A stretch of DNA of 60,576 nucleotides, counting the filler. It is 3 parts of 3 records of this genome, joined end to end, with 100 filler letters (N's around TTAATTAATTAA, not from the genome) between each part and the next. Parts side by side here need not be neighbours in the genome. Positions count along the whole stretch, not along the records: positions 1 to 26,786 come from SRR31156797_352; 2 more parts are not named here. One strand, given 5' to 3'. The translations under genes were made by a program, and so were the position numbers. Shown piece by piece: positions 16,831-32,856 of the stretch (its first letter is position 1; each line of letters begins with the position of its first letter). The notes below the pieces were generated by a model that was not told the DNA's origin, made no database searches, and worked only from the letters and a program-made list of their open reading frames with translations.

Positions 16831-16944
16831 AGTTTTAAGTGTTTCTTTAATAACCTTACGGGCTGCGAAATGTTTCTTTGAAATTCTTACATTTTTATCA
16901 CTTTTTTGTGGAGGCAGGATCACGGTGGAGGGGTGAAGCCAGAT

Positions 16945-17150
16945 GGAAGAATGGAGTCTTGGAGGAATGGATTATTGGAAGGTTGGGGGTATTGGAATAA
17001 TGTATAGGTGGGGAATGTTGTAATATTGGAGTCTTGGGGAAATGGGTTATTGGAAGGATGGAAGGTTGGGGTATTGGAACGATGGATAGGTAGGGAATGT
17101 TGGAATAATGGAGTCTTGGGGGAATGGAATAATGGAAGGATGGGATGCTT
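16945..17150 (+). repeat. Degenerate period-8 purine-rich tandem array (~25 units, consensus GGARKRWT)
   Basis: ggaagaat ggagtctt ggaggaat ggattatt ggaaggtt ... ggaataat ggaaggat; almost no C on the + strand. Confidence 0.8.
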
Positions 17151-17161
17151 GATTTTTGGGG

Positions 17162-17244
17162 AAACCTGTCAGGTTTTTGCTCAAAGCGAGAAGCTATTTT
17201 CCGGAGGTTTGTGTTTAAGGTATGGGAGGAAACCTGACAGGTTT
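17162..17244. repeat. Pair of REP-like palindromes AAACCTGTCAGGTTT / AAACCTGACAGGTTT
   Basis: Exact 15-bp inverted copies at 17162-17176 and 17230-17244; same motif recurs at 25487-25903. Confidence 0.8.
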
Positions 17245-17355
17245 AATAAACAACCGCATGCCAACCGAAATGGGCTAAGCGCACGTGCGGCAGGCCCTGA
17301 CTCTTTGATGTCAGGCAGTACCCGCCTTGCCGCCAGAGATGGGCTATGCGCAGGC

Positions 17356-17499
17356 GAGGCAGGGATTGGAGCGGTACCCCTGTGCAGCGGCAGCTGATGT
17401 TTTATGTTGGCGGGCGCAGGCTGACAACGGAAGCCCACGTACCGCCTACAAAAACACAGCCGGCGCAAGCAGGGTAAAGCGGAAAGCCCTGATAGCCTC
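17356..17499. ncRNA. Candidate structured RNA / repeat element (long imperfect hairpin)
   Basis: Nested complementary segments GAGGC/GCCTC, AGGG/CCCT, TACCC..CTG/CAG-GGTA, GCTG-TGTTTT/AAAACA-CAGC, GGCGG/CCGCC; GC-rich within AT-rich DNA. Confidence 0.45.
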
Positions 17500-19385: not shown

Positions 19386-21548
19386 ATGATCGCAAATCCT
19401 AAAAAATCCACCCTTCTTAAAATCGTCATCTGCTTGATCCTGATTGTACTGTATCCAGGCAAAACCCGCGCACAGAAAACTCCCACGAAGACATTATCAG
19501 ATTTGAATCAAGCAGAAACCGAATTGCTCAATTACCCTTCGTCACCGAAGGTATTACAAACAGACACCATTTTTGATATCCCTGTAAATGATGAATACAG
19601 ATGGCTGGAAAATCTTGACAGCCCGGAAACCAAAGCATGGATTGATGCCCAAAATCTACTTACAGATAAAGCACTCAGAAAGCCCTCCAATAAGATCAAT
19701 TCTTATGTGCTAATCGATAAGTATTCGTACGTAAAATATGACAATCCGCAAAAAATGGGCAGTTACTATTTTACATATGCTTATTACAACAATGTAAGTG
19801 TCCCGGCTCTGTTTTATCAAAGAACGCTACATGAAAATCCGACCATAATTGTAGATCCGAATTTTATTTCTTCAAAAGATAATATTCTTCTGAAAAACTA
19901 CGCCGTTTCAAAAGACAACAAATTTCTGGCGTACCAATTTAGCCGCAATGGAAGTGACTGGGGTGAAATTAAAGTGGTTAATCTGAAAAGTGGGAGCCAT
20001 AAAGATGACCACCTGACCGGGGTGAAATTTTCGGGTATCTCGTGGAAAGACGATGGGTTTTACTATTCAAGATTTTCAAAAAGCGAAGAAAAGGATTTTT
20101 GCCAGCATGTGTATTACCATAAGTTGGGCACTACACAGGAAAATGATGAATTGATATTTAAGCGCAAGGATCCGGATATATTGTTCGATGTGAAGACAAC
20201 ATCTGACGAGCGCTACCTGATCATCCATGAACAGAACCAAACCACCGGCAGTGGGAATGTTTTCTATATTGATTTTAGTTCAGAGATGCCTGCACTCCGG
20301 CCACTGATAACAAGGCTATCAGGTGATGAAAACATGACTGTTCTTGATAATTCCGGAGATCTGATTATGGCAACCTCGTTCAAAGAAAACAACAACGGGA
20401 TGATCATTGCGGTCGATCCGGCCAACCCAAGGCAATGGGAAGTAGTTATTCCAGAATATGAGTCGTCACTTTTAATTGATGTGAAGCTGCTGGATGAAAA
20501 AATAATTGCACTTTATCAATCCAACAGGAAACAGATGATCACCTTTTACGACTACAAGGGAAAGGTGCTGGAGGCACTGCAATTGCCATTCGGTTTTTCT
20601 GCCGATGGCTTTAGTGGTGAGAAAAGTGATAAGGAAATCCTGTTTTCCTATTCGAGCTACACACAGCCACCGGTGGTTTATATTCTGAATACGGAAACAT
20701 TTAAAATGAAACCACTTCGGGCAACCGTTGTAAACTTCGATTACAAAAATTTTGAAACATTGGAACTGGAGTATAAATCGTTTGATGGAACAAAAGTGCC
20801 ATTGTTTGTTATTTACAAAAAGGGCCTGGACCTTTCGGCAAAAAACCCTTTGCTGCTGGAGGCTTACGGTGGTTTTGGAAGTATTGTCACCCCATCTTTT
20901 TCCCCCGGGATTGTTCATTTTTTGTTTAAGGGTGGCGTGTATGCTTTTGCCAACATCCGGGGTGGTGGTGACAATGGAAAAGCCTGGGCTCTGGCTGGAA
21001 GAGGCGAGCACAAACAAAATTCATTCAACGATTTTATTGCTGCTGCCGAATACCTCATCCAGCAAAACTATACATCTCCTGAAAAGCTGACTATAACCGG
21101 CGCTTCAAACGGCGGCCTGGTGGTTGCCGTGGCCATGACGCAAAGGCCTGATCTATTTAAAGTAGCTGTGCCCGTGGTTGCTCCATTCGACATGATCAGG
21201 TTTGAGCAGTTTTCTGTTGGCAAGTATCATACTGATGAGTATGGAAGTGTAAGTGACCCAGATGGGTTTGCACACCTTCTTGATTATAGTCCCTATCATA
21301 ATATTGACCCCAAGCGTAATTATCCGGCAATGCTAATCATGACCTCTGAAAACGACGATCGGGTTCCCCCATTTAATTCCTATAAGTTTGCTGCAAAATT
21401 GCAGAATAATCCTGCTCAAAGAAACCCGGTGCTGCTTCGTGTGGAAGAGGGCGCAGGTCATTATGGTGCAACCGGCAGTTTCAAAAAACACCTGAGAAGC
21501 GAAGCCGCCATGTATGATTTTATTTTATTTCATTTAAACACACCGTAA
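19386..21548 (+). CDS. Prolyl oligopeptidase (S9A), exported
   Basis: Signal peptide; D.YRWLE, YGGF, ANIRGGG, GASNGG (Ser), DDRVPP (Asp), AGH (His). Confidence 0.93.
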   Translation: MIANPKKSTLLKIVICLILIVLYPGKTRAQKTPTKTLSDLNQAETELLNYPSSPKVLQTDTIFDIPVNDEYRWLENLDSPETKAWIDAQNLLTDKALRKPSNKINSYVLIDKYSYVKYDNPQKMGSYYFTYAYYNNVSVPALFYQRTLHENPTIIVDPNFISSKDNILLKNYAVSKDNKFLAYQFSRNGSDWGEIKVVNLKSGSHKDDHLTGVKFSGISWKDDGFYYSRFSKSEEKDFCQHVYYHKLGTTQENDELIFKRKDPDILFDVKTTSDERYLIIHEQNQTTGSGNVFYIDFSSEMPALRPLITRLSGDENMTVLDNSGDLIMATSFKENNNGMIIAVDPANPRQWEVVIPEYESSLLIDVKLLDEKIIALYQSNRKQMITFYDYKGKVLEALQLPFGFSADGFSGEKSDKEILFSYSSYTQPPVVYILNTETFKMKPLRATVVNFDYKNFETLELEYKSFDGTKVPLFVIYKKGLDLSAKNPLLLEAYGGFGSIVTPSFSPGIVHFLFKGGVYAFANIRGGGDNGKAWALAGRGEHKQNSFNDFIAAAEYLIQQNYTSPEKLTITGASNGGLVVAVAMTQRPDLFKVAVPVVAPFDMIRFEQFSVGKYHTDEYGSVSDPDGFAHLLDYSPYHNIDPKRNYPAMLIMTSENDDRVPPFNSYKFAAKLQNNPAQRNPVLLRVEEGAGHYGATGSFKKHLRSEAAMYDFILFHLNTP

Positions 21549-21626: not shown

Positions 21627-24050
21627 ATGCTCCGGGTACCCTTAATGTTTATGATATTATTCTTTGGCATCGCTTTACATGCCCAGCAATTTTTTTCGGG
21701 TGTAGTTAAAGATGCCGGTACCCGCATCCCCATCGATCAGGTGCTGATTCACACTACCAATGAAACTTATTTAACAGCCTCTGACTCAACAGGTGCATTC
21801 AAACTTTCGCTGGCCTTGCCCGGAAGCCCGGAAACTACGCTAAATCAATGGATCTCACTTTCAGATAATTTACTTAGATGGGACCAGCATCTCACAGTGA
21901 TGATTTCGCTTTATGCCATGAACGGCACCACCATTTTTAACGAAAACTTTGCCGGAGAAAATTCGACATATTTACCGGTACCGGCACCCGGACATTATAT
22001 ACTGGAAGCAAAATCCGGATCACATCAAACCACGATTCTGCTGTTTTCTAACGGACAAACGCTGGTTCAGGGAAAAAAAAATAACATGCAGTTTCTCCCG
22101 CCGGTTACCGACAGCATGCTGATATTTTCCAGGCCAGAGTATTATCCACGCGAAATTTCGCTTACCAAAACCGATACATTTGTTACGGTAAACCTCTTGA
22201 AGAAAGCCTATGACAGCCTTGACTACTTTAATGAACTGATCAGCCACGAGGCTTTTCTTATGCTGCATAGCAGCCCACCACTTTCTAACTATGGCGGGAT
22301 ACAGTCGATCAAAGTCTTATACAACTTTGAAGATGATGAAATTTACTATTCCAATACCAAAAAATACAGTAGCCATTTTGCTTTCGCTGAAGCCATTCTC
22401 GACTATAACCTGGGCATCGACAACTTTTTTTATTCGCAATATGGCAGCCATAGCAGCCGGTTTTTAAACCTGGTGACCATCAATTATCACAAAACAATCG
22501 ATAAATATGTTTTTGAATTTGGATCTATTGACCTTGTAGATTGTGAAGGTGTAAAAGACACCTATGAAAAAATCCTTGCCACCTCATTTTTTGGCGACAA
22601 GCTTTTTTTCTATGCCAATAATCTGCGCTGGCAGGATTGCCAGGAGTTTCCCATAATAACATCCGAAGAGTTGTATGAAGGCCAGAATTACCAGGCCCTC
22701 AATCCGGAAGAAGGTTACGGATACCTGCGCAAGGTAGAAATAGATCATTTACCCGACACCTACCTCGGGCGTCATGATATTGTACTGCTCAACGGAATCC
22801 CAAATAATTTGTCGGTAGTAGCCGGCATCATTACCACCGAATTCCAGACCGCACTCAGCCACATCAACATCCTGAGCCACAACCGCCAAACACCAAATAT
22901 GGCGCTGAAGGACGGCTGGACAAACCCGCGATTGGATACACTGCTGGGCCAACTCGTTTATTTAAAAGTTGAAGGTAACGACTTTGAAATCCGAAGCGCC
23001 GGCATTGATGAAGCTGAAGCCTTCTGGCTGCAGAAGGAGCCCCAGACACCTGTAATTCTTGAAAAAGATACCGAAACGTCTGGCCTTATCGAAATGGAAG
23101 ATGCGGATTTTTTTGCCGTGGCAACCATTGGGGGTAAGGCCGCCAACTTCGCCGAGCTGGTTAATTTGGAGAGCATCCCCGTTCCTGAGAACTCTTTTGC
23201 CATCCCGTTTTACTATTATGAACAGCACATCCAGACGCATGGCATCGATACCCTGATCAATCAGATGCTTACCGACGAACAGACCTACAGCGACCTGGAC
23301 TACAGGAGAGAAAAACTGGAAGATATTCAGGATGCCATTGAGGATGCACAGCTTGACCAGGAATTGGAGTCGCTGGTTTTGGAACGAATCGGAAATTTTA
23401 ATGATTTTGAGGCGATCAGATTCCGTTCTTCAACCAACGCCGAAGACCTGGAAAACTTCAGCGGAGCCGGCCTGTACGATTCCTATTCAGCCAAAAAAGA
23501 CCACCCGACAAAAACCATCGACCGGGCCATCAAAAAAGTATGGGCGAGCCTTTGGAACCTGCGTGCTTTTGATGAACGGGAATATTATAAAATTGATCAA
23601 CAGTCGGTATCCATGGGAATTCTGGTGCATCGTTCCTTTCCCAACGAAGATGCCAACGGTGTGGTGATCACCAGGAACCTGTACAACAACAACCACGGTT
23701 ATACCATCAATGTACAGTATAAGGAATATAGCATCACATATCCCGAACAGGGCATTATGCATGATCAAATTATTGCTTATACCATCAACCTTGAGCAAAA
23801 CAATTATACTTTTGAATACCTTACCCAGTCGAACATACCTGAACTGAACGGCCAGCCGGTACTCAGTGACGAAGAGTTATATGAACTGGCTGACTATTGC
23901 ACCGAGATCAAACAGCATTATTTTTATAACCTTCCGCACAATGGCGATGGATATAACCTGTTTGCCGTGGATATCGAATTTAAAGTAGATTCACAAGTAA
24001 CCCCCAGGAAGATATATATCAAACAGGCCAGAATATACGCCCAGGATTAA
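21627..24050 (+). CDS. Exported PEP/pyruvate-binding (PPDK-type ATP-grasp) protein with upstream phospho-His-like domain; putative X,water dikinase
   Basis: Signal peptide ALHA-Q; AGIITTEFQTALSHINIL (His412); GGKAANF (502), RSSTNAEDLENFSGAGLYDS (600), KKVWASLW, MGILV, DIEFK, YIKQAR. Confidence 0.8.
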   Translation: MLRVPLMFMILFFGIALHAQQFFSGVVKDAGTRIPIDQVLIHTTNETYLTASDSTGAFKLSLALPGSPETTLNQWISLSDNLLRWDQHLTVMISLYAMNGTTIFNENFAGENSTYLPVPAPGHYILEAKSGSHQTTILLFSNGQTLVQGKKNNMQFLPPVTDSMLIFSRPEYYPREISLTKTDTFVTVNLLKKAYDSLDYFNELISHEAFLMLHSSPPLSNYGGIQSIKVLYNFEDDEIYYSNTKKYSSHFAFAEAILDYNLGIDNFFYSQYGSHSSRFLNLVTINYHKTIDKYVFEFGSIDLVDCEGVKDTYEKILATSFFGDKLFFYANNLRWQDCQEFPIITSEELYEGQNYQALNPEEGYGYLRKVEIDHLPDTYLGRHDIVLLNGIPNNLSVVAGIITTEFQTALSHINILSHNRQTPNMALKDGWTNPRLDTLLGQLVYLKVEGNDFEIRSAGIDEAEAFWLQKEPQTPVILEKDTETSGLIEMEDADFFAVATIGGKAANFAELVNLESIPVPENSFAIPFYYYEQHIQTHGIDTLINQMLTDEQTYSDLDYRREKLEDIQDAIEDAQLDQELESLVLERIGNFNDFEAIRFRSSTNAEDLENFSGAGLYDSYSAKKDHPTKTIDRAIKKVWASLWNLRAFDEREYYKIDQQSVSMGILVHRSFPNEDANGVVITRNLYNNNHGYTINVQYKEYSITYPEQGIMHDQIIAYTINLEQNNYTFEYLTQSNIPELNGQPVLSDEELYELADYCTEIKQHYFYNLPHNGDGYNLFAVDIEFKVDSQVTPRKIYIKQARIYAQD

Positions 24051-24151: not shown

Positions 24152-25480
24152 ATGAACAAGATTTACATTCTAACCTTGCTGCTACTTTTCCTTTTGCCGG
24201 GAATAATTCATGCACAAACCCCCATCAGCTCGATAAAAGGTGAACTGGAAAGCATTGATGGAATCGCAAATGTTAAACCACTGGAATGCGATACCTTTTT
24301 CCTGGAAAAATACCTGGTAATTGTTGAGCAGCCTGTAAACCACAAAAAGAAAAATGGAGACCAATTCACCCAGCGTGTGGTGGTAGGTTTCAAAGGACGC
24401 ACCCGGCCAACCATTTTTGTAACCGAGGGCTATGCAGGAAATTATGCCCTGTGGCCAAAATATGTGAACGAACTTTGTGTGCTGCTGGATGCCAACCTGG
24501 TGTTTGTGGAGCACCGGTATTTCGCTGAATCCATTCCGGATACAACCTCCTGGAAATACCACACCATTAAGCAATCAGCCAGCGATCATCACCGGATAAA
24601 CCAGCTGATGCAGCAGGTACTCACCGGTCCTTATGTAAGCACGGGCATCAGCAAAGGCGGACAAACCACCATGTATTACAAGTATTATTTTCCGGAGGAT
24701 TGCGAAGCCTGGGTTCCATTGGTTGCCCCGCTAAACTTCAGTATTGCAGATGATAGAGTAAATCCATTTATTAATCAGATTGATGGTGAGGAATGCAGAA
24801 AAAAGATCCGGGATTTTCAGATTTTGGCGCTGGAGAAGCAGGATGATTTAATGGCTGATTTTCTGAAACTTGCCAAAGAGAAAGGTTACCATTACGAAAC
24901 TGTTGGTGGCCCCGAGGCCGGATACCAGATGATTGTGCTGGAATACCCCTTTGCTTTCTGGCAGTGGGGATTTATCCCCTGCGAAGATATTCCGGGAACT
25001 AATGTAGCTGATTCAACCATTCTGAAACATCTGCTGGCAGCTTCTCCTGCCGACTATTTTGCTGATGAAGGTATTGAGGGGATGTGGCCTTTCTTTTACC
25101 AGGCACTCACCCAGATCGGTTATTACGATTATGACACCACCGGACTTGGAAAATACATGGATCATGTTACCGATCTTGATTTTTCGGCGTTTGCACCGGA
25201 AGGGACAAATCTAAAATTCAAGAAGCGCTATATGAAAAGGGTGAACCGCTACCTCACCAAAAAAGGCAACAACATGATATATATTTATGGGGAATACGAT
25301 CCGTGGTCATCCACAGGTTTTACCCCGGATAATGAAAAAACCAATTCATTCAGAGTGGTAAAAGCCGGAGGCTCGCACACCACACGCATCCGAAATTTAC
25401 CACATGAACAGCAAACCCAGGTGATGGATTCTTTGGAAAACTGGCTGGGAGTTAAGATTAACAGGAAGGCATTTCAATAG
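24152..25480 (+). CDS. Exported serine aminopeptidase, S37 (PS-10)/S28 family
   Basis: Signal peptide; QPVNH, FTQRV, VEHRYFAES, STGISKGG nucleophile, IYIYGEYDPWS, GSH. Confidence 0.88.
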   Translation: MNKIYILTLLLLFLLPGIIHAQTPISSIKGELESIDGIANVKPLECDTFFLEKYLVIVEQPVNHKKKNGDQFTQRVVVGFKGRTRPTIFVTEGYAGNYALWPKYVNELCVLLDANLVFVEHRYFAESIPDTTSWKYHTIKQSASDHHRINQLMQQVLTGPYVSTGISKGGQTTMYYKYYFPEDCEAWVPLVAPLNFSIADDRVNPFINQIDGEECRKKIRDFQILALEKQDDLMADFLKLAKEKGYHYETVGGPEAGYQMIVLEYPFAFWQWGFIPCEDIPGTNVADSTILKHLLAASPADYFADEGIEGMWPFFYQALTQIGYYDYDTTGLGKYMDHVTDLDFSAFAPEGTNLKFKKRYMKRVNRYLTKKGNNMIYIYGEYDPWSSTGFTPDNEKTNSFRVVKAGGSHTTRIRNLPHEQQTQVMDSLENWLGVKINRKAFQ

Positions 25481-26136: not shown

Positions 26137-26786
26137 ATGAATCATCAAAATTTGAAATATAATATAAATACTGGTTTACCAACAAAATTAATAACCATAC
26201 TTGTTGGAATTATGCTTGTATCCTGCAATCAAAACCGCAGCACCTTCCTTCCGGTGAATATTATTCCTGAGCCAGTTTCCATGGAGGAAAGAGGCGGCTA
26301 TTATCAAATTACAGATGCCACCAAAATGCTGATAGAACAAGGAGATGAAAATTCATACAAAATCGCAGAAATGTTCACAACTCAGGTTTCAGCTGTTTCG
26401 GGTTTAAATCTGGAAATTAAGCCTATTGAAGACCGCAGAAATGATCATGGAATCATTTTTGAAACCTTGCCCGAAGCCGACACACTGGGAGCAGAAGGAT
26501 ATATCCTGCAGGTGAAAAACAAGAAGATCGAACTTTCGGCACACCAACCGGCCGGCCTTTTCAGGGGAATGCAAACATTGTTTCAACTGATGCCTCCGGA
26601 AACTTTTGGAGAACAAGTTGCAACACAAGTAGAATGGAAAATCCCCAGAGTAATAATCCATGATAAGCCAAGATACGGATGGCGCGGCATGCATCTGGAT
26701 GTTTCACGGCATTTCTTCGATACGGCCTTTATCAAACGCTACATCGACCTGATTGCCATGCACAAAATGAATGTATTTCACTGGCA
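26137..26786 (+). CDS. Beta-N-acetylhexosaminidase (GH20), lipoprotein; truncated by contig end
   Basis: Lipobox LVSC; IIPEP, EGYIL, DKPRYGWRGMHLDVSRHFF, KMNVFHW(H). Confidence 0.92.
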
Positions 26787-26886
26787 NNNNNNNNNNNNNN
26801 NNNNNNNNNNNNNNNNNNNNNNNNNNNNNNTTAATTAATTAANNNNNNNNNNNNNNNNNNNNNNNNNNNNNNNNNNNNNNNNNNNN
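26787..26886. other. Artificial contig-join spacer
   Basis: N44-TTAATTAATTAA-N44; GH20 is cut at the join and gene content changes across it. Confidence 0.97.
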
Positions 26887-26898
26887 TTTATAGATAAT

Positions 26899-26934
26899 AA
26901 AAATCCCCGGAAACAAATGTTTCCGGGGATTTTT
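26899..26934. terminator. Bidirectional intrinsic terminator
   Basis: Perfect 17-bp IR AAAAATCCCCGGAAACA/TGTTTCCGGGGATTTTT downstream of mscS. Confidence 0.8.
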
Positions 26935-31179: not shown

Positions 31180-32856
31180 ATGGTTGAAGAGAAAAAAATG
31201 AACATATGGAAGAGGAACGTGGACTTTTCGGACAGGGGCGTGCGTCTGGATAAATTCTGGGGGCGCGAACTGACTGAAGAAGGAGTCTCACGCGGACGGG
31301 TCAAATCCTGGATTGAATCCGGCATGGCTATCGTCGATGGGCAGATTATAACCAAAGGTAAACACAAGCTTTTAGGTGGTGAGCAAGTCTCCATCGGGGC
31401 TGAAGATGTGTTGATGGGCGAGAACGCCCCTGAGCCGATCCCGGGAGATCTATCGGTATTGTTTGAAGACGAGCATATGCTCGTGGTGGAAAAGCGTGCC
31501 GGAGTTACAACGCACCCTGCGCCGGCGGAAAAAGGACCGACTCTGGTCAATTATCTTCTGCATCAATGGCCGGATATTGCGGCGGATGTGTCAGGTATGG
31601 ACGAACAGCGTCCCGGCATCGTGCATCGATTGGATAAGGATACTTCAGGTATCATGGCAGTTGCCCGTACTGAAGCTGCCCGGTTGAAACTGGCATCTGA
31701 TTTTGCCGAGCGCAAAGTTCACAAGGTCTATCTTGCCATTGTCCACGGTTGTCCATCCCAGCCTTACGGTACCATTGATGCTCCTATGGGGCGTCATCCC
31801 AATCAGAAGACTCGCATGGCCGTTGTTGAAAAAGGCGGTCGTGATGCTCGGAGTGAGTATCGTGTCCTTTGGACCGGACCTCGCGGGTTGGCCTCGTTGG
31901 TGGCCGTGCGTATCCATACAGGACGAACCCACCAAATTCGTGTGCACATGGCACATATTGGTCATCCGCTTTTGGGAGATGGGGTCTATGGCTCGCGGGA
32001 AAATGTTGACTGGTCCCGGCGGCCTGATTCTTTGGCTGTATTGGCTCCGCGCCAAATGCTTCATGCCTTTTATCTTTCAGTAACACACCCCGTGACCGGT
32101 GAAAAAATAATCCGCTGGCAGGCCCCGCCTGAAGATTTTCAGACGTTATTGTCCGGTTTGACACGTGAGTGTTTGCGGGTGGGGATTGTTGGTATGCCCG
32201 GTTGTGGTAAATCCACGATGCTTAAGGCGTTGTGTGGCTTGGAGCTCCCCTGTTTCAGTGCAGATGAGAGTGTTGCTGCGCTTTATGGCCCGGATGGTGA
32301 TGGGGCCTCCATGATTCGACAACGATTTGGCGGGCAGTATTCGCTTGAGGATGGAAGCGTGGACAAAATAGTTTTGTTTCAAGCCATGCAGACTTCCGAA
32401 ACCGTGCGCCGAGAGGTGATGGATTTGATTCATCCCATGGTTCGTCATGCGTGCGAAGAGTTTTTCAAGGAGCATCGTGATGAGGTGGCCGCCTTTGCCG
32501 AGGTTCCATTGTTGTTGGAGTCGGGGTGGCATAAAGACGGTCGTGTGGATATGGTTGCCGGAGTCTCGTGTCCCGATGAAAAACGGACAGGCGAATTGCG
32601 TGAGAAACGGGGACTGACTGCTGAAACATTGGCCATATTCGACTCGTGGCAATGGTCGGAGAAAGATAAGCTCGCGGCATGTGATCTTGTGTTGAGCAAT
32701 GCTGGCGGCGTGAAAGAATTGCAAGGTGAAGCCGTCACATTGTGGAATTTTGCTCGTGAAAAGGCTGAGCGGCGTAATACGGAATTCGAGGGCTGGATGG
32801 AAGAACTGTGGCCTGATCTGGCCGATGAATTTTCGGCTGAGGGGGCTGATGCATGA
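31180..32856 (+). CDS. Fusion of RluD-type pseudouridine synthase and dephospho-CoA kinase
   Basis: S4 domain, HRLDKDTSG, TGRTHQIRVH, QMLHA, then GMPGCGKST, IHPMV, EVPLLLE (CoaE) in one open frame. Confidence 0.9.
   Translation: MVEEKKMNIWKRNVDFSDRGVRLDKFWGRELTEEGVSRGRVKSWIESGMAIVDGQIITKGKHKLLGGEQVSIGAEDVLMGENAPEPIPGDLSVLFEDEHMLVVEKRAGVTTHPAPAEKGPTLVNYLLHQWPDIAADVSGMDEQRPGIVHRLDKDTSGIMAVARTEAARLKLASDFAERKVHKVYLAIVHGCPSQPYGTIDAPMGRHPNQKTRMAVVEKGGRDARSEYRVLWTGPRGLASLVAVRIHTGRTHQIRVHMAHIGHPLLGDGVYGSRENVDWSRRPDSLAVLAPRQMLHAFYLSVTHPVTGEKIIRWQAPPEDFQTLLSGLTRECLRVGIVGMPGCGKSTMLKALCGLELPCFSADESVAALYGPDGDGASMIRQRFGGQYSLEDGSVDKIVLFQAMQTSETVRREVMDLIHPMVRHACEEFFKEHRDEVAAFAEVPLLLESGWHKDGRVDMVAGVSCPDEKRTGELREKRGLTAETLAIFDSWQWSEKDKLAACDLVLSNAGGVKELQGEAVTLWNFAREKAERRNTEFEGWMEELWPDLADEFSAEGADA

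Follow-up and report, generated by a model that had tools for sequence, protein, structure and literature searches.

In a stretch of DNA of 60,576 nucleotides (in the following called the window), which consists of three joined parts, we found a gene at 21627..24050 on the plus strand that encodes a putative exported dikinase with a domain order similar to that of the α-glucan,water dikinases (GWD) and phosphoglucan,water dikinases (PWD) of plants and algae. From its ATP-grasp domain, its catalytic residues, the modelled swivel fold and the histidine within it, the protein can be assigned to the His-swivel dikinase superfamily together with pyruvate phosphate dikinase (PPDK), phosphoenolpyruvate (PEP) synthase, rifampin phosphotransferase (RPH) and GWD. 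Its relatives, compared at the sequence level, form a widespread, consistently exported and uncharacterised family of GWD-like swivel dikinases. We consider it highly probable that fold and export are both correctly assigned, and on balance we favour a function as X,water dikinase outside the cytoplasm, as suggested by the sequence comparisons and structure models described below. All positions refer to the whole stretch and all residue numbers to the window protein of 807 amino acids (aa).

Domain organisation

The gene is a single open reading frame (ORF) with an ATG start, and all motifs quoted in an earlier reading made from the letters of the DNA (the sequence-only reading) are present in its translation, namely LSHINILSH, GGKAAN, RSSTNAEDLENFSGAGLYDS and IKKVWASLW. 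LSHINILSH is encoded at 22854-22880 with the codon of His412 at 22860-22862. One homologue search returned 336 full-length relatives at E ≤ 0.001 and an exhaustive search gave 4398 cluster representatives at the same threshold (2173 at ≤ 1e-10 and 966 at ≤ 1e-30), showing that the dikinase gene is real and excluding a chance ORF. The AlphaFold model of the whole protein has a mean pLDDT of 84.4 and a pTM of 0.71, and from this model and the extent of homology among the relatives we derived the domain borders, all on the plus strand. A signal peptide (residues 1-19, 21627..21683) is followed by an N-terminal all-beta region that is modelled as two beta-sandwich domains (residues 20-190, 21684..22196), an alpha/beta middle domain (residues 195-355, 22209..22691), the phospho-His swivel domain carrying His412 (residues ~359-470, 22701..23036) and a C-terminal PPDK-type ATP-grasp domain (residues 499-802, 23121..24032). 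The core shared by the whole family comprises residues 195-804 and opens with the middle domain.

The His domain precedes the ATP-grasp, at which the protein ends; this is the GWD-like order that had been claimed before. A PEP/pyruvate barrel (PEP-utilizers_C) is not among the four Pfam families found at E ≤ 1, in agreement with the barrel-less architecture of the sequence-only reading. Its 'unknown ~170-aa domain' was right only in part: the clade-specific beta region of residues 20-190 does exist, but the stretch in front of the His domain is ~340 aa long and the domain at 195-355 had been overlooked.

Conservation of the catalytic domains

PPDK_N (PF01326) matches residues 499-802 with an E-value of 4.7e-36 (125.1 bits against a cut-off of 27) and is the sole significant Pfam domain of the protein, which bears out the C-terminal PPDK-type nucleotide-binding domain predicted earlier; it is also matched by all 65 diverse relatives that were scanned. 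Among 134 cluster representatives of 560-1100 aa, to which all counts out of 134 refer, K504, S601, S602, N604 and E606 are each present in every sequence, R600 and R802 in 133, Q800 in 132 and E784 in 131. These residues sit in the motifs G-G-K, R-S-S-x-N-x-E-D and D-x-E-F-K...K-Q-x-R, which are also aligned in PEP synthases and RPH, and we take them to include the equivalents of K22 and R337 of PPDK. Conservation of this kind is what a functional nucleotide site would show, in contrast to a degenerate domain. The closest solved structures are PEP synthases 9dae (E 8.8e-21) and 8a8e and RPH 5hv6 in a profile search of the Protein Data Bank (PDB), the Listeria RPH in a sequence search (E 2.6e-12 over residues 497-690) and RPH 5hv1 in a Foldseek search with the whole-protein model (E 5.3e-16), the result of which is dominated by the ATP-grasp. 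PPDK, too, is matched in the fold of this domain.

The assignment of the His domain comes from the relatives and from the fold. GWD1_pHisD (PF22973), the Pfam model of the α-glucan,water dikinase phosphohistidine-like domain, is matched by 23 of the 65 relatives scanned singly (best E 1.2e-6). The matches cover nearly the whole 115-position model and correspond to window residues ~359-464, and one relative (P0169) exceeds the curated cut-off with 28.6 against 27 bits. The PEP-utilizers family (PF00391) is matched weakly by three of the 65 (best E 0.15). In the model, residues ~359-470 form a small beta/beta/alpha domain. A separate model of residues 195-490, built from a 77-sequence alignment, reached a pLDDT of 94.3, and Foldseek placed RPH 5hv2 at the top of its PDB matches (E 2.1e-4, 109 columns, root mean square deviation 3.3). 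Other matches were PPDK, the N-terminal domain of Enzyme I, the C-terminal domain of Staphylococcus aureus pyruvate kinase, the isolated phosphoryl-carrier domain of PPDK (2fm4, TM score 0.46 on target) and further swivelling beta/beta/alpha proteins. These matches are modest in E-value yet coherent as a list. When the family profile was compared with PDB sequences, LSH(I/V) was aligned below threshold on the TSHAA motif of the PEP synthases 9dae, 8a8e and 2ols, the TSH histidine of which is presumably the catalytic one.

His412 is invariant in the alignments of 65 and of 77 sequences and is kept in 132 of the 134 representatives; His418, the second histidine of the repeat, is found in 39 of them and is not conserved. 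The sequence-only reading had placed His412 in a phospho-His swivel domain and had made its conservation and the swivel fold the points on which this would be decided, and we found the residue conserved and the fold present, both in the matches to RPH, PPDK and Enzyme I and in the GWD-type domain recognised in the relatives.

The middle domain is conserved as well, with H250 in 134, Y272 in 133, K229 in 128 and R278 in 123 of the 134 representatives, followed by the near-invariant Q356, and H250 thus ranks even above His412. No Pfam family matches the middle domain at E ≤ 10 (residues 1-473 searched), and Foldseek with the 195-490 model against the PDB gave nothing informative for residues 195-355, with PPK1 matches at a probability of 0.10-0.16. 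In the ESM Atlas the best scores were 0.84 (residues 195-372) and 0.80 (195-355), under the 0.9 level; a Chlorophyta cluster with GWD1_pHisD scored 0.79 and 0.75, respectively, and can serve as a sub-threshold lead. We propose that this domain binds the acceptor, as it holds the only conserved candidate site.

For the N-terminal beta region (residues 20-190) the model shows strands only. It has a weak match to CarbopepD_reg_2 at residues 24-62 (E 0.0012, under the Pfam cut-off), another weak one to the Por_Secre_tail-like domain of the type IX secretion system (T9SS; TIGR04183) at residues 87-136 (E 0.019), and a Foldseek match from the whole-protein model to the DUF3244 protein BT_1867 (4g5a, E 5.5e-3). 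The region is confined to a Bacteroidota clade of ~810-aa proteins and is missing from the relatives of ~630-660 aa. The T9SS sorting-like beta-sandwich lies near the N-terminus (21885-22034) and not at the C-terminus, and it is shared by the relatives P0125, P0127 and P0129 (PF18962, E 0.00042 in relatives), while NCBI has given another relative, P0065, the name of a T9SS sorting-domain protein. The beta region closes with a conserved D-(S/T)-x tripeptide (consensus DTL; DSM at residues 162-164 in the window protein, 22110-22118). This tripeptide agrees with D(S/T)(A/I/L/V/M/T), the motif for O-glycosylation in Bacteroidota, and the window protein holds five motifs of this type.

Export and distribution of the family

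The N-terminus MLRVPLMFMILFFGIALHA, directly followed by QQ, shows a basic n-region, a 14-residue hydrophobic core and the n/h/c layout of the Sec signal peptide that had been named in the sequence-only reading, and cleavage by signal peptidase I is predicted between HA and QQ. It is the sole hydrophobic stretch of the protein (19-residue windows with a Kyte-Doolittle value ≥ 1.6 begin at residues 1-6 only) and was modelled as a lone helix (residues 3-19) with low confidence. A twin-arginine motif and a lipobox are both missing from the N-terminus of the window protein, and a C-terminal T9SS domain is not present in it. Owing to the signal peptidase I site and the lack of these two features, lipobox and T9SS domain, the window protein is probably periplasmic. 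Gln20, the residue after the predicted cleavage, is invariant in 32 of 32 sequences of the ~810-aa clade, with variable surroundings. A passage in PMC5837995 states that cleavage by signal peptidase I in Bacteroidetes typically leaves an N-terminal Gln, and the invariance of Gln20 fits this Q-rule and so supports export.

Signals of this kind are found throughout the family. Among 242 full-length relatives, 228 have a hydrophobic N-terminal segment, which is preceded by Lys or Arg in 221 of them, and 37 are lipobox-like; the 14 that fail the test are mostly apparent truncated gene calls. Cys306 and Cys338 co-vary, with both present in 22, a single one in 2 and 0, and neither in 110 of the 134 representatives, as expected of a disulfide pair from the sequence pattern.

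Most relatives are 630-660 aa long, with the core placed behind a short signal peptide or a lipobox. A genome scan identified 591 loci that encode a relative, the best 80 of which, together with the window locus (81 in total), were used for all locus analyses. By record title these best 80 of 591 belong to Bacteroidota (59), Fibrobacterota (4), Myxococcota/"Deltaproteobacteria" (10), metagenome-assembled genomes (MAGs) labelled as Rickettsiales (3), Alphaproteobacteria (2), Comamonadaceae (1) and an unclassified proteobacterium (1), and the nearest among them are from Lentimicrobiaceae MAGs with 60-61% identity. Culturable carriers of a homologue are represented by records from Flavobacterium, Chitinophaga, Tenacibaculum and Maribellus. 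We found no publication describing this bacterial family in a literature search with most subscription journals outside its coverage.

In addition, 140 relatives of at least 1414 aa were found, and five of them were scanned for domains. The abundant 1456-aa form from Flavobacteriaceae (P0321, labelled "lamin tail domain-containing protein") combines the core with CARDB, an SprB repeat, LTD and a C-terminal T9SS sorting domain (Por_Secre_tail). Another (P0356) carries Calx-beta, a purple-acid-phosphatase-type Metallophos domain, cadherin, the core and fn3, and a third (P0328) AIR9-type and SCAB-type Ig-like domains. Such long forms with T9SS sorting and surface domains are the strongest line of evidence for export. 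The remaining two have the dikinase core at the C-terminus and are receptor-like in their predicted architecture, with Receptor-L, a Ser/Thr/Tyr protein kinase and Sel1 repeats in P0272 (1740 aa) and Receptor-L, a PIG-L deacetylase and a methyltransferase in P0283 (2032 aa).

A dikinase that stays in the cytoplasm, with an N-terminus that is merely signal-like because of a mis-called start or an inward uncleaved anchor, would agree with the dependence on ATP, and the signal peptide was judged by a crude hydropathy rule. However, the N-termini of the relatives align with the called start and share the invariant Gln20, the basic residue in front of the hydrophobic core predicts an N-in, C-out topology, and the lipobox variants in 37 relatives, the T9SS sorting domains of the long forms and the co-varying Cys pair are all at odds with it. 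A cytoplasmic location of this family is therefore very unlikely, and we hardly reckon with it.

Relationship to known dikinases

Both the domain layout and the kind of His domain resemble most closely those of GWD and PWD (EC 2.7.9.4/2.7.9.5). These plant and algal enzymes also combine binding modules, a central region, a phospho-His and a C-terminal PPDK_N without a TIM barrel, and PF22973, the model that recognises the His domain in the relatives, was built on GWD1. In contrast, the window protein itself is under detection for PF22973, CBM45 and CBM20 are absent from its Pfam matches, and the bacterial protein is exported whereas GWD and PWD are plastidial or cytosolic. A section of PMC12892837 locates the catalytic His of GWD in its phosphohistidine domain and mentions that none of the GWD/PWD structures has been solved.

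With PEP synthase and PPDK the protein shares the PF01326 ATP-grasp, the D-x-E...K-Q-x-R and G-G-K motifs and, aligned below threshold, the S-H motif, but it has no PEP/pyruvate barrel, its domain order is reversed and it is exported. An identity as PEP synthase or PPDK was rejected, as NF005057 scored 107.6 against a cut-off of 598, TIGR01418 98.1 against 739.75 and TIGR01828 gave an E-value of 0.12. The NCBIfam models of PEP synthase and of the prodigiosin ligases match with their ATP-grasp part only, far under their cut-offs.

RPH (5hv1, 5fbs) is the best match among solved structures for the ATP-grasp as well as the His domain and is likewise a three-module swivel dikinase without TIM barrel. 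It differs in that its ATP-grasp is followed by the rifampin-binding domain and the His domain, while the window protein has the ATP-grasp last, so that its order of acceptor domain, His domain and ATP-grasp could be seen as that of RPH after circular permutation. An identity as RPH was rejected as well: NF041857 scored 72.6 bits against a cut-off of 999 and covered model positions 4-195 only, which is the ATP-grasp. The folds that Foldseek found in common with RPH are those of the ATP-grasp and the His domain, and it gave no match to the rifampin-binding domain. The resemblance nevertheless raises the question of an RPH-like small-molecule kinase that acts in the periplasm, where it would modify or inactivate an antibiotic, a toxin or a signal. 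The structural matches to both RPH domains (5hv1 and 5hv2), the permuted order and the frequency of the family in soil and predatory lineages would suit such a role, but the equivalog score falls far short and stems from the ATP-grasp, the rifampin-binding domain lacks a counterpart in fold, the fusions are adhesin-like or surface-related and do not resemble resistance contexts, and the RPH enzymes known to us carry no export signal. We therefore regard a small-molecule kinase as improbable and keep to the GWD-like dikinase.

An ATP-dependent enzyme targeted to the periplasm is not without precedent, as described for Lig E in 10.64898/2026.03.22.713542. The likeness is an analogy only and lies, according to this source and PMC10799422, in the nucleotide dependence, the signal peptide and the Gram-negative host; fold and chemistry of Lig E are unrelated to those of the window dikinase.

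Proposed mechanism

The domain identities and their order, the conservation of the catalytic residues and the family-wide export signals were observed, and on them we built a model in which the enzymatic activity, the use of water as co-acceptor and the identities of acceptor and nucleotide source are proposals. The ATP-grasp (residues 499-802) would bind a nucleoside triphosphate (NTP) and Mg, and the β-phosphate would be transferred to His412 on the swivel domain. The γ-phosphate would be passed to water and leave as Pi or, in a PPDK-like variant, be passed to Pi, the two being indistinguishable from these data. The His domain would swing to the middle domain (residues 195-355 with H250, Y272, K229 and R278) and phosphorylate an extracytoplasmic acceptor bound there, and the N-terminal beta-sandwiches would fill the role of the carbohydrate-binding modules (CBMs) of GWD and PWD. 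ATP is small enough to pass through porins and might reach the enzyme in this way from lysed or leaking cells, or there might be another supply route; the VTC/DUF4956 and phosphatase associations described below may point to a route of phosphoanhydride supply or recycling. The extracytoplasmic bacterial X,water dikinase of the sequence-only reading has held in all parts that can be tested in silico, whereas activity, acceptor and true location are what we infer.

By analogy, a glycan or envelope polymer appears to be the most likely acceptor. We prefer it because of the GWD-type His domain, the beta-sandwiches at the position of the CBMs, the adhesin-like fusions and the carriers, which are polymer degraders and predators by lifestyle. 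A glycan in particular is a tentative suggestion, which we think is rather less probable than the dikinase activity as such.

Several points weigh against the extracytoplasmic dikinase and its proposed acceptor. The window protein matches neither PF22973 nor PF00391 (residues 1-473, E ≤ 10), the best Foldseek E-value of its His domain is merely 2.1e-4, and the profile alignments of this domain to PDB sequences have independent E-values of 1e2 to 3e3 and are not significant singly, so that the call of a His domain draws on the fold, the relatives and sub-threshold alignments and not on the window sequence itself. The middle domain is without an informative match, which makes the glycan, chosen by analogy, a guess, and neither a carbohydrate-binding module nor a glycan-active neighbour accompanies the family in a conserved manner. 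The crude hydropathy rule used as signal-peptide test is also passed by 267 of 621 neighbouring control ORFs. Finally, we know of no ATP supply to the periplasm.

To our knowledge, His-swivel dikinases have been described as cytoplasmic or plastidial enzymes, and the periplasm and cell surface are usually assumed to be free of ATP. An exported family in which every nucleotide-binding and phospho-His residue is kept would imply NTP-dependent phosphorylation in the periplasm or on the cell surface, which would concern many polymer-degrading and predatory bacteria and run counter to this assumption. GWD tracks starch in eukaryotes and is called a eukaryotic hallmark of starch metabolism in a passage of bioRxiv 10.64898/2026.09.25.754361, and a passage of PMC13666283 states that prokaryotes have no known glucan phosphorylation machinery. 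As the GWD1 model recognises the His domain of a bacterial family, our results bear on the origin of GWD and on bacterial polymer phosphorylation. One could speculate that the starch dikinases have their prokaryotic counterpart in this family, which possibly stands near their evolutionary source and would phosphorylate an insoluble or envelope glycan for hydrolase access as GWD does on starch. Lysed prey, leaking cells or a dedicated export pathway would provide the nucleotide. This is a long shot, but if it were true, Bacteroidota, Fibrobacterota and Myxococcota would routinely carry out ATP-driven chemistry in the periplasm and at the cell surface.

Gene neighbourhood

In the window the dikinase gene is preceded by a gene for an exported S9 prolyl oligopeptidase (19386..21548, plus strand; Peptidase_S9_N and Peptidase_S9, signal-peptide N-terminus) and followed by one for an exported S37 peptidase (24152..25480, plus strand; Peptidase_S37, E 1.3e-60, signal-peptide N-terminus). 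Further downstream lies a GH20 ORF with a lipobox N-terminus (26137..26838, plus strand), which comprises Glyco_hydro_20b and the catalytic domain up to its position 37. It has no real stop, as its translation enters X (unread bases), and is therefore cut by missing sequence and not genuinely short. The exported peptidases and the GH20 reported nearby are thus real genes, but the functional argument that had been drawn from them fails, as this synteny is missing from the other 80 loci. A homologue of the S9 gene occurs within 8 kb in one of these 80 (L007, ~1.7 kb off and not adjacent), and no homologue of the S37 gene was found beside the relatives in them. When 945 neighbouring ORFs of the 81 loci were clustered, no widely common partner appeared, the largest cluster covering 10 loci with blastp and 14 with jackhmmer. 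As the window neighbours are not conserved in relatives, the neighbourhood is silent on function.

Some partners are specific for certain lineages, and none of them (DUF4956, VTC, phosphatases or the Cys-rich lipoprotein below) is present in the window. DUF4956 genes directly adjoin the dikinase gene in five of the 81 loci, which come from Tenacibaculum, Edaphocola, a Myxococcales MAG and, twice, Flavobacterium and represent at least four lineages. In no order matched to these names, the DUF4956 genes are L070:7347-7943, L074:9874-10434, L077:10037-10594, L079:9842-10399 and L078:6519-7178. In L078 the order is a VTC-domain gene, DUF4956, a DUF3108-like gene, the dikinase and a purple-acid-phosphatase-like gene (Pur_ac_phosph_N/Metallophos). 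VTC, which we take to be a polyphosphate-polymerase-type domain, is found in two of the 81 loci. A His_Phos_1 phosphatase gene lies downstream of the dikinase in L070 and has a homologue in L034, so that phosphatase neighbours amount to one purple acid phosphatase gene and two His_Phos_1 genes in the 81 loci. A link to polyphosphate or phosphate cycling is possible in this setting.

Two further explanations have to be considered here. The protein might scavenge nucleotides and phosphate, converting extracellular NTP to AMP and 2 Pi for uptake, with water as final acceptor or with phosphatases working in concert and with neither a polymer nor a small molecule as acceptor. The phosphatase genes next to the dikinase in L078 and L070, the fusion of the core with a purple-acid-phosphatase-type Metallophos domain in P0356 and the LTD in the abundant Flavobacteriaceae form, a domain linked with extracellular nucleases or phosphatases, would fit such a function, as would the lack of a conserved acceptor-specific partner. 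Against it, the phosphatase links are restricted to few lineages, simple phosphatases would suffice without a three-domain swivel machine, and an invariant extra domain (H250 and Y272) is hard to explain with water as the sole acceptor, for which reasons scavenging seems unlikely to us.

Alternatively, the protein could be exported and use a donor other than free ATP or take part in a polyphosphate-linked phosphoanhydride relay, in which the ATP-grasp binds this other donor or runs in reverse. The adjoining DUF4956 genes and the VTC gene that precedes DUF4956 in L078 speak for this, but the full PPDK-type set of nucleotide and Mg residues is conserved, the DUF4956 link is limited to five of the 81 loci and absent from the window, and nothing indicates that bacterial VTC/DUF4956 pairs export polyphosphate. 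We attach little probability to this second explanation, and the ATP-dependent extracytoplasmic dikinase remains our preferred reading.

Outside Bacteroidota, a gene for an exported Cys-rich lipoprotein of ~300-440 aa is located within 8 kb of the dikinase gene in 14 of 21 loci and is often adjacent to it (L046:6664-7734, L054:6922-7860, L080:6658-7878 and 11 further loci). It matches no Pfam family and has five invariant Cys in the arrangement G-D-C...C-x-P-x-C...C...C; W, H-G and R are invariant, too. We count the presence of this lipoprotein near the dikinase among the lines that favour export of the family.

A scan for promoters gave 24 sigma-70-like sites against 17.7 +/- 4.0 expected and is uninformative, with a consensus unfit for Bacteroidota. 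Equally uninformative, terminator-like sites numbered 8 against 8.6 +/- 3.1 expected, none of them between the S9, dikinase and S37 genes. A perfect 16-bp hairpin follows the GH20 ORF at 26899-26934. At 16944-17143 there are tandem repeats whose periods are 16, 24 and 82 nt (the 82-nt unit twice, with 87% matches). An ORF on these repeats (17008-17397, plus strand) encodes 129 repetitive, W/G-rich amino acids without Pfam match and is probably not a gene but a repeat in the intergenic region that separates msrAB from pyrB. At 31180-32856 (plus strand) a 558-aa ORF combines PseudoU_synth_2 (residues 99-259) with a dephospho-CoA kinase domain, CoaE (residues 334-512), and represents two genes read through as one or else an unusual fusion.

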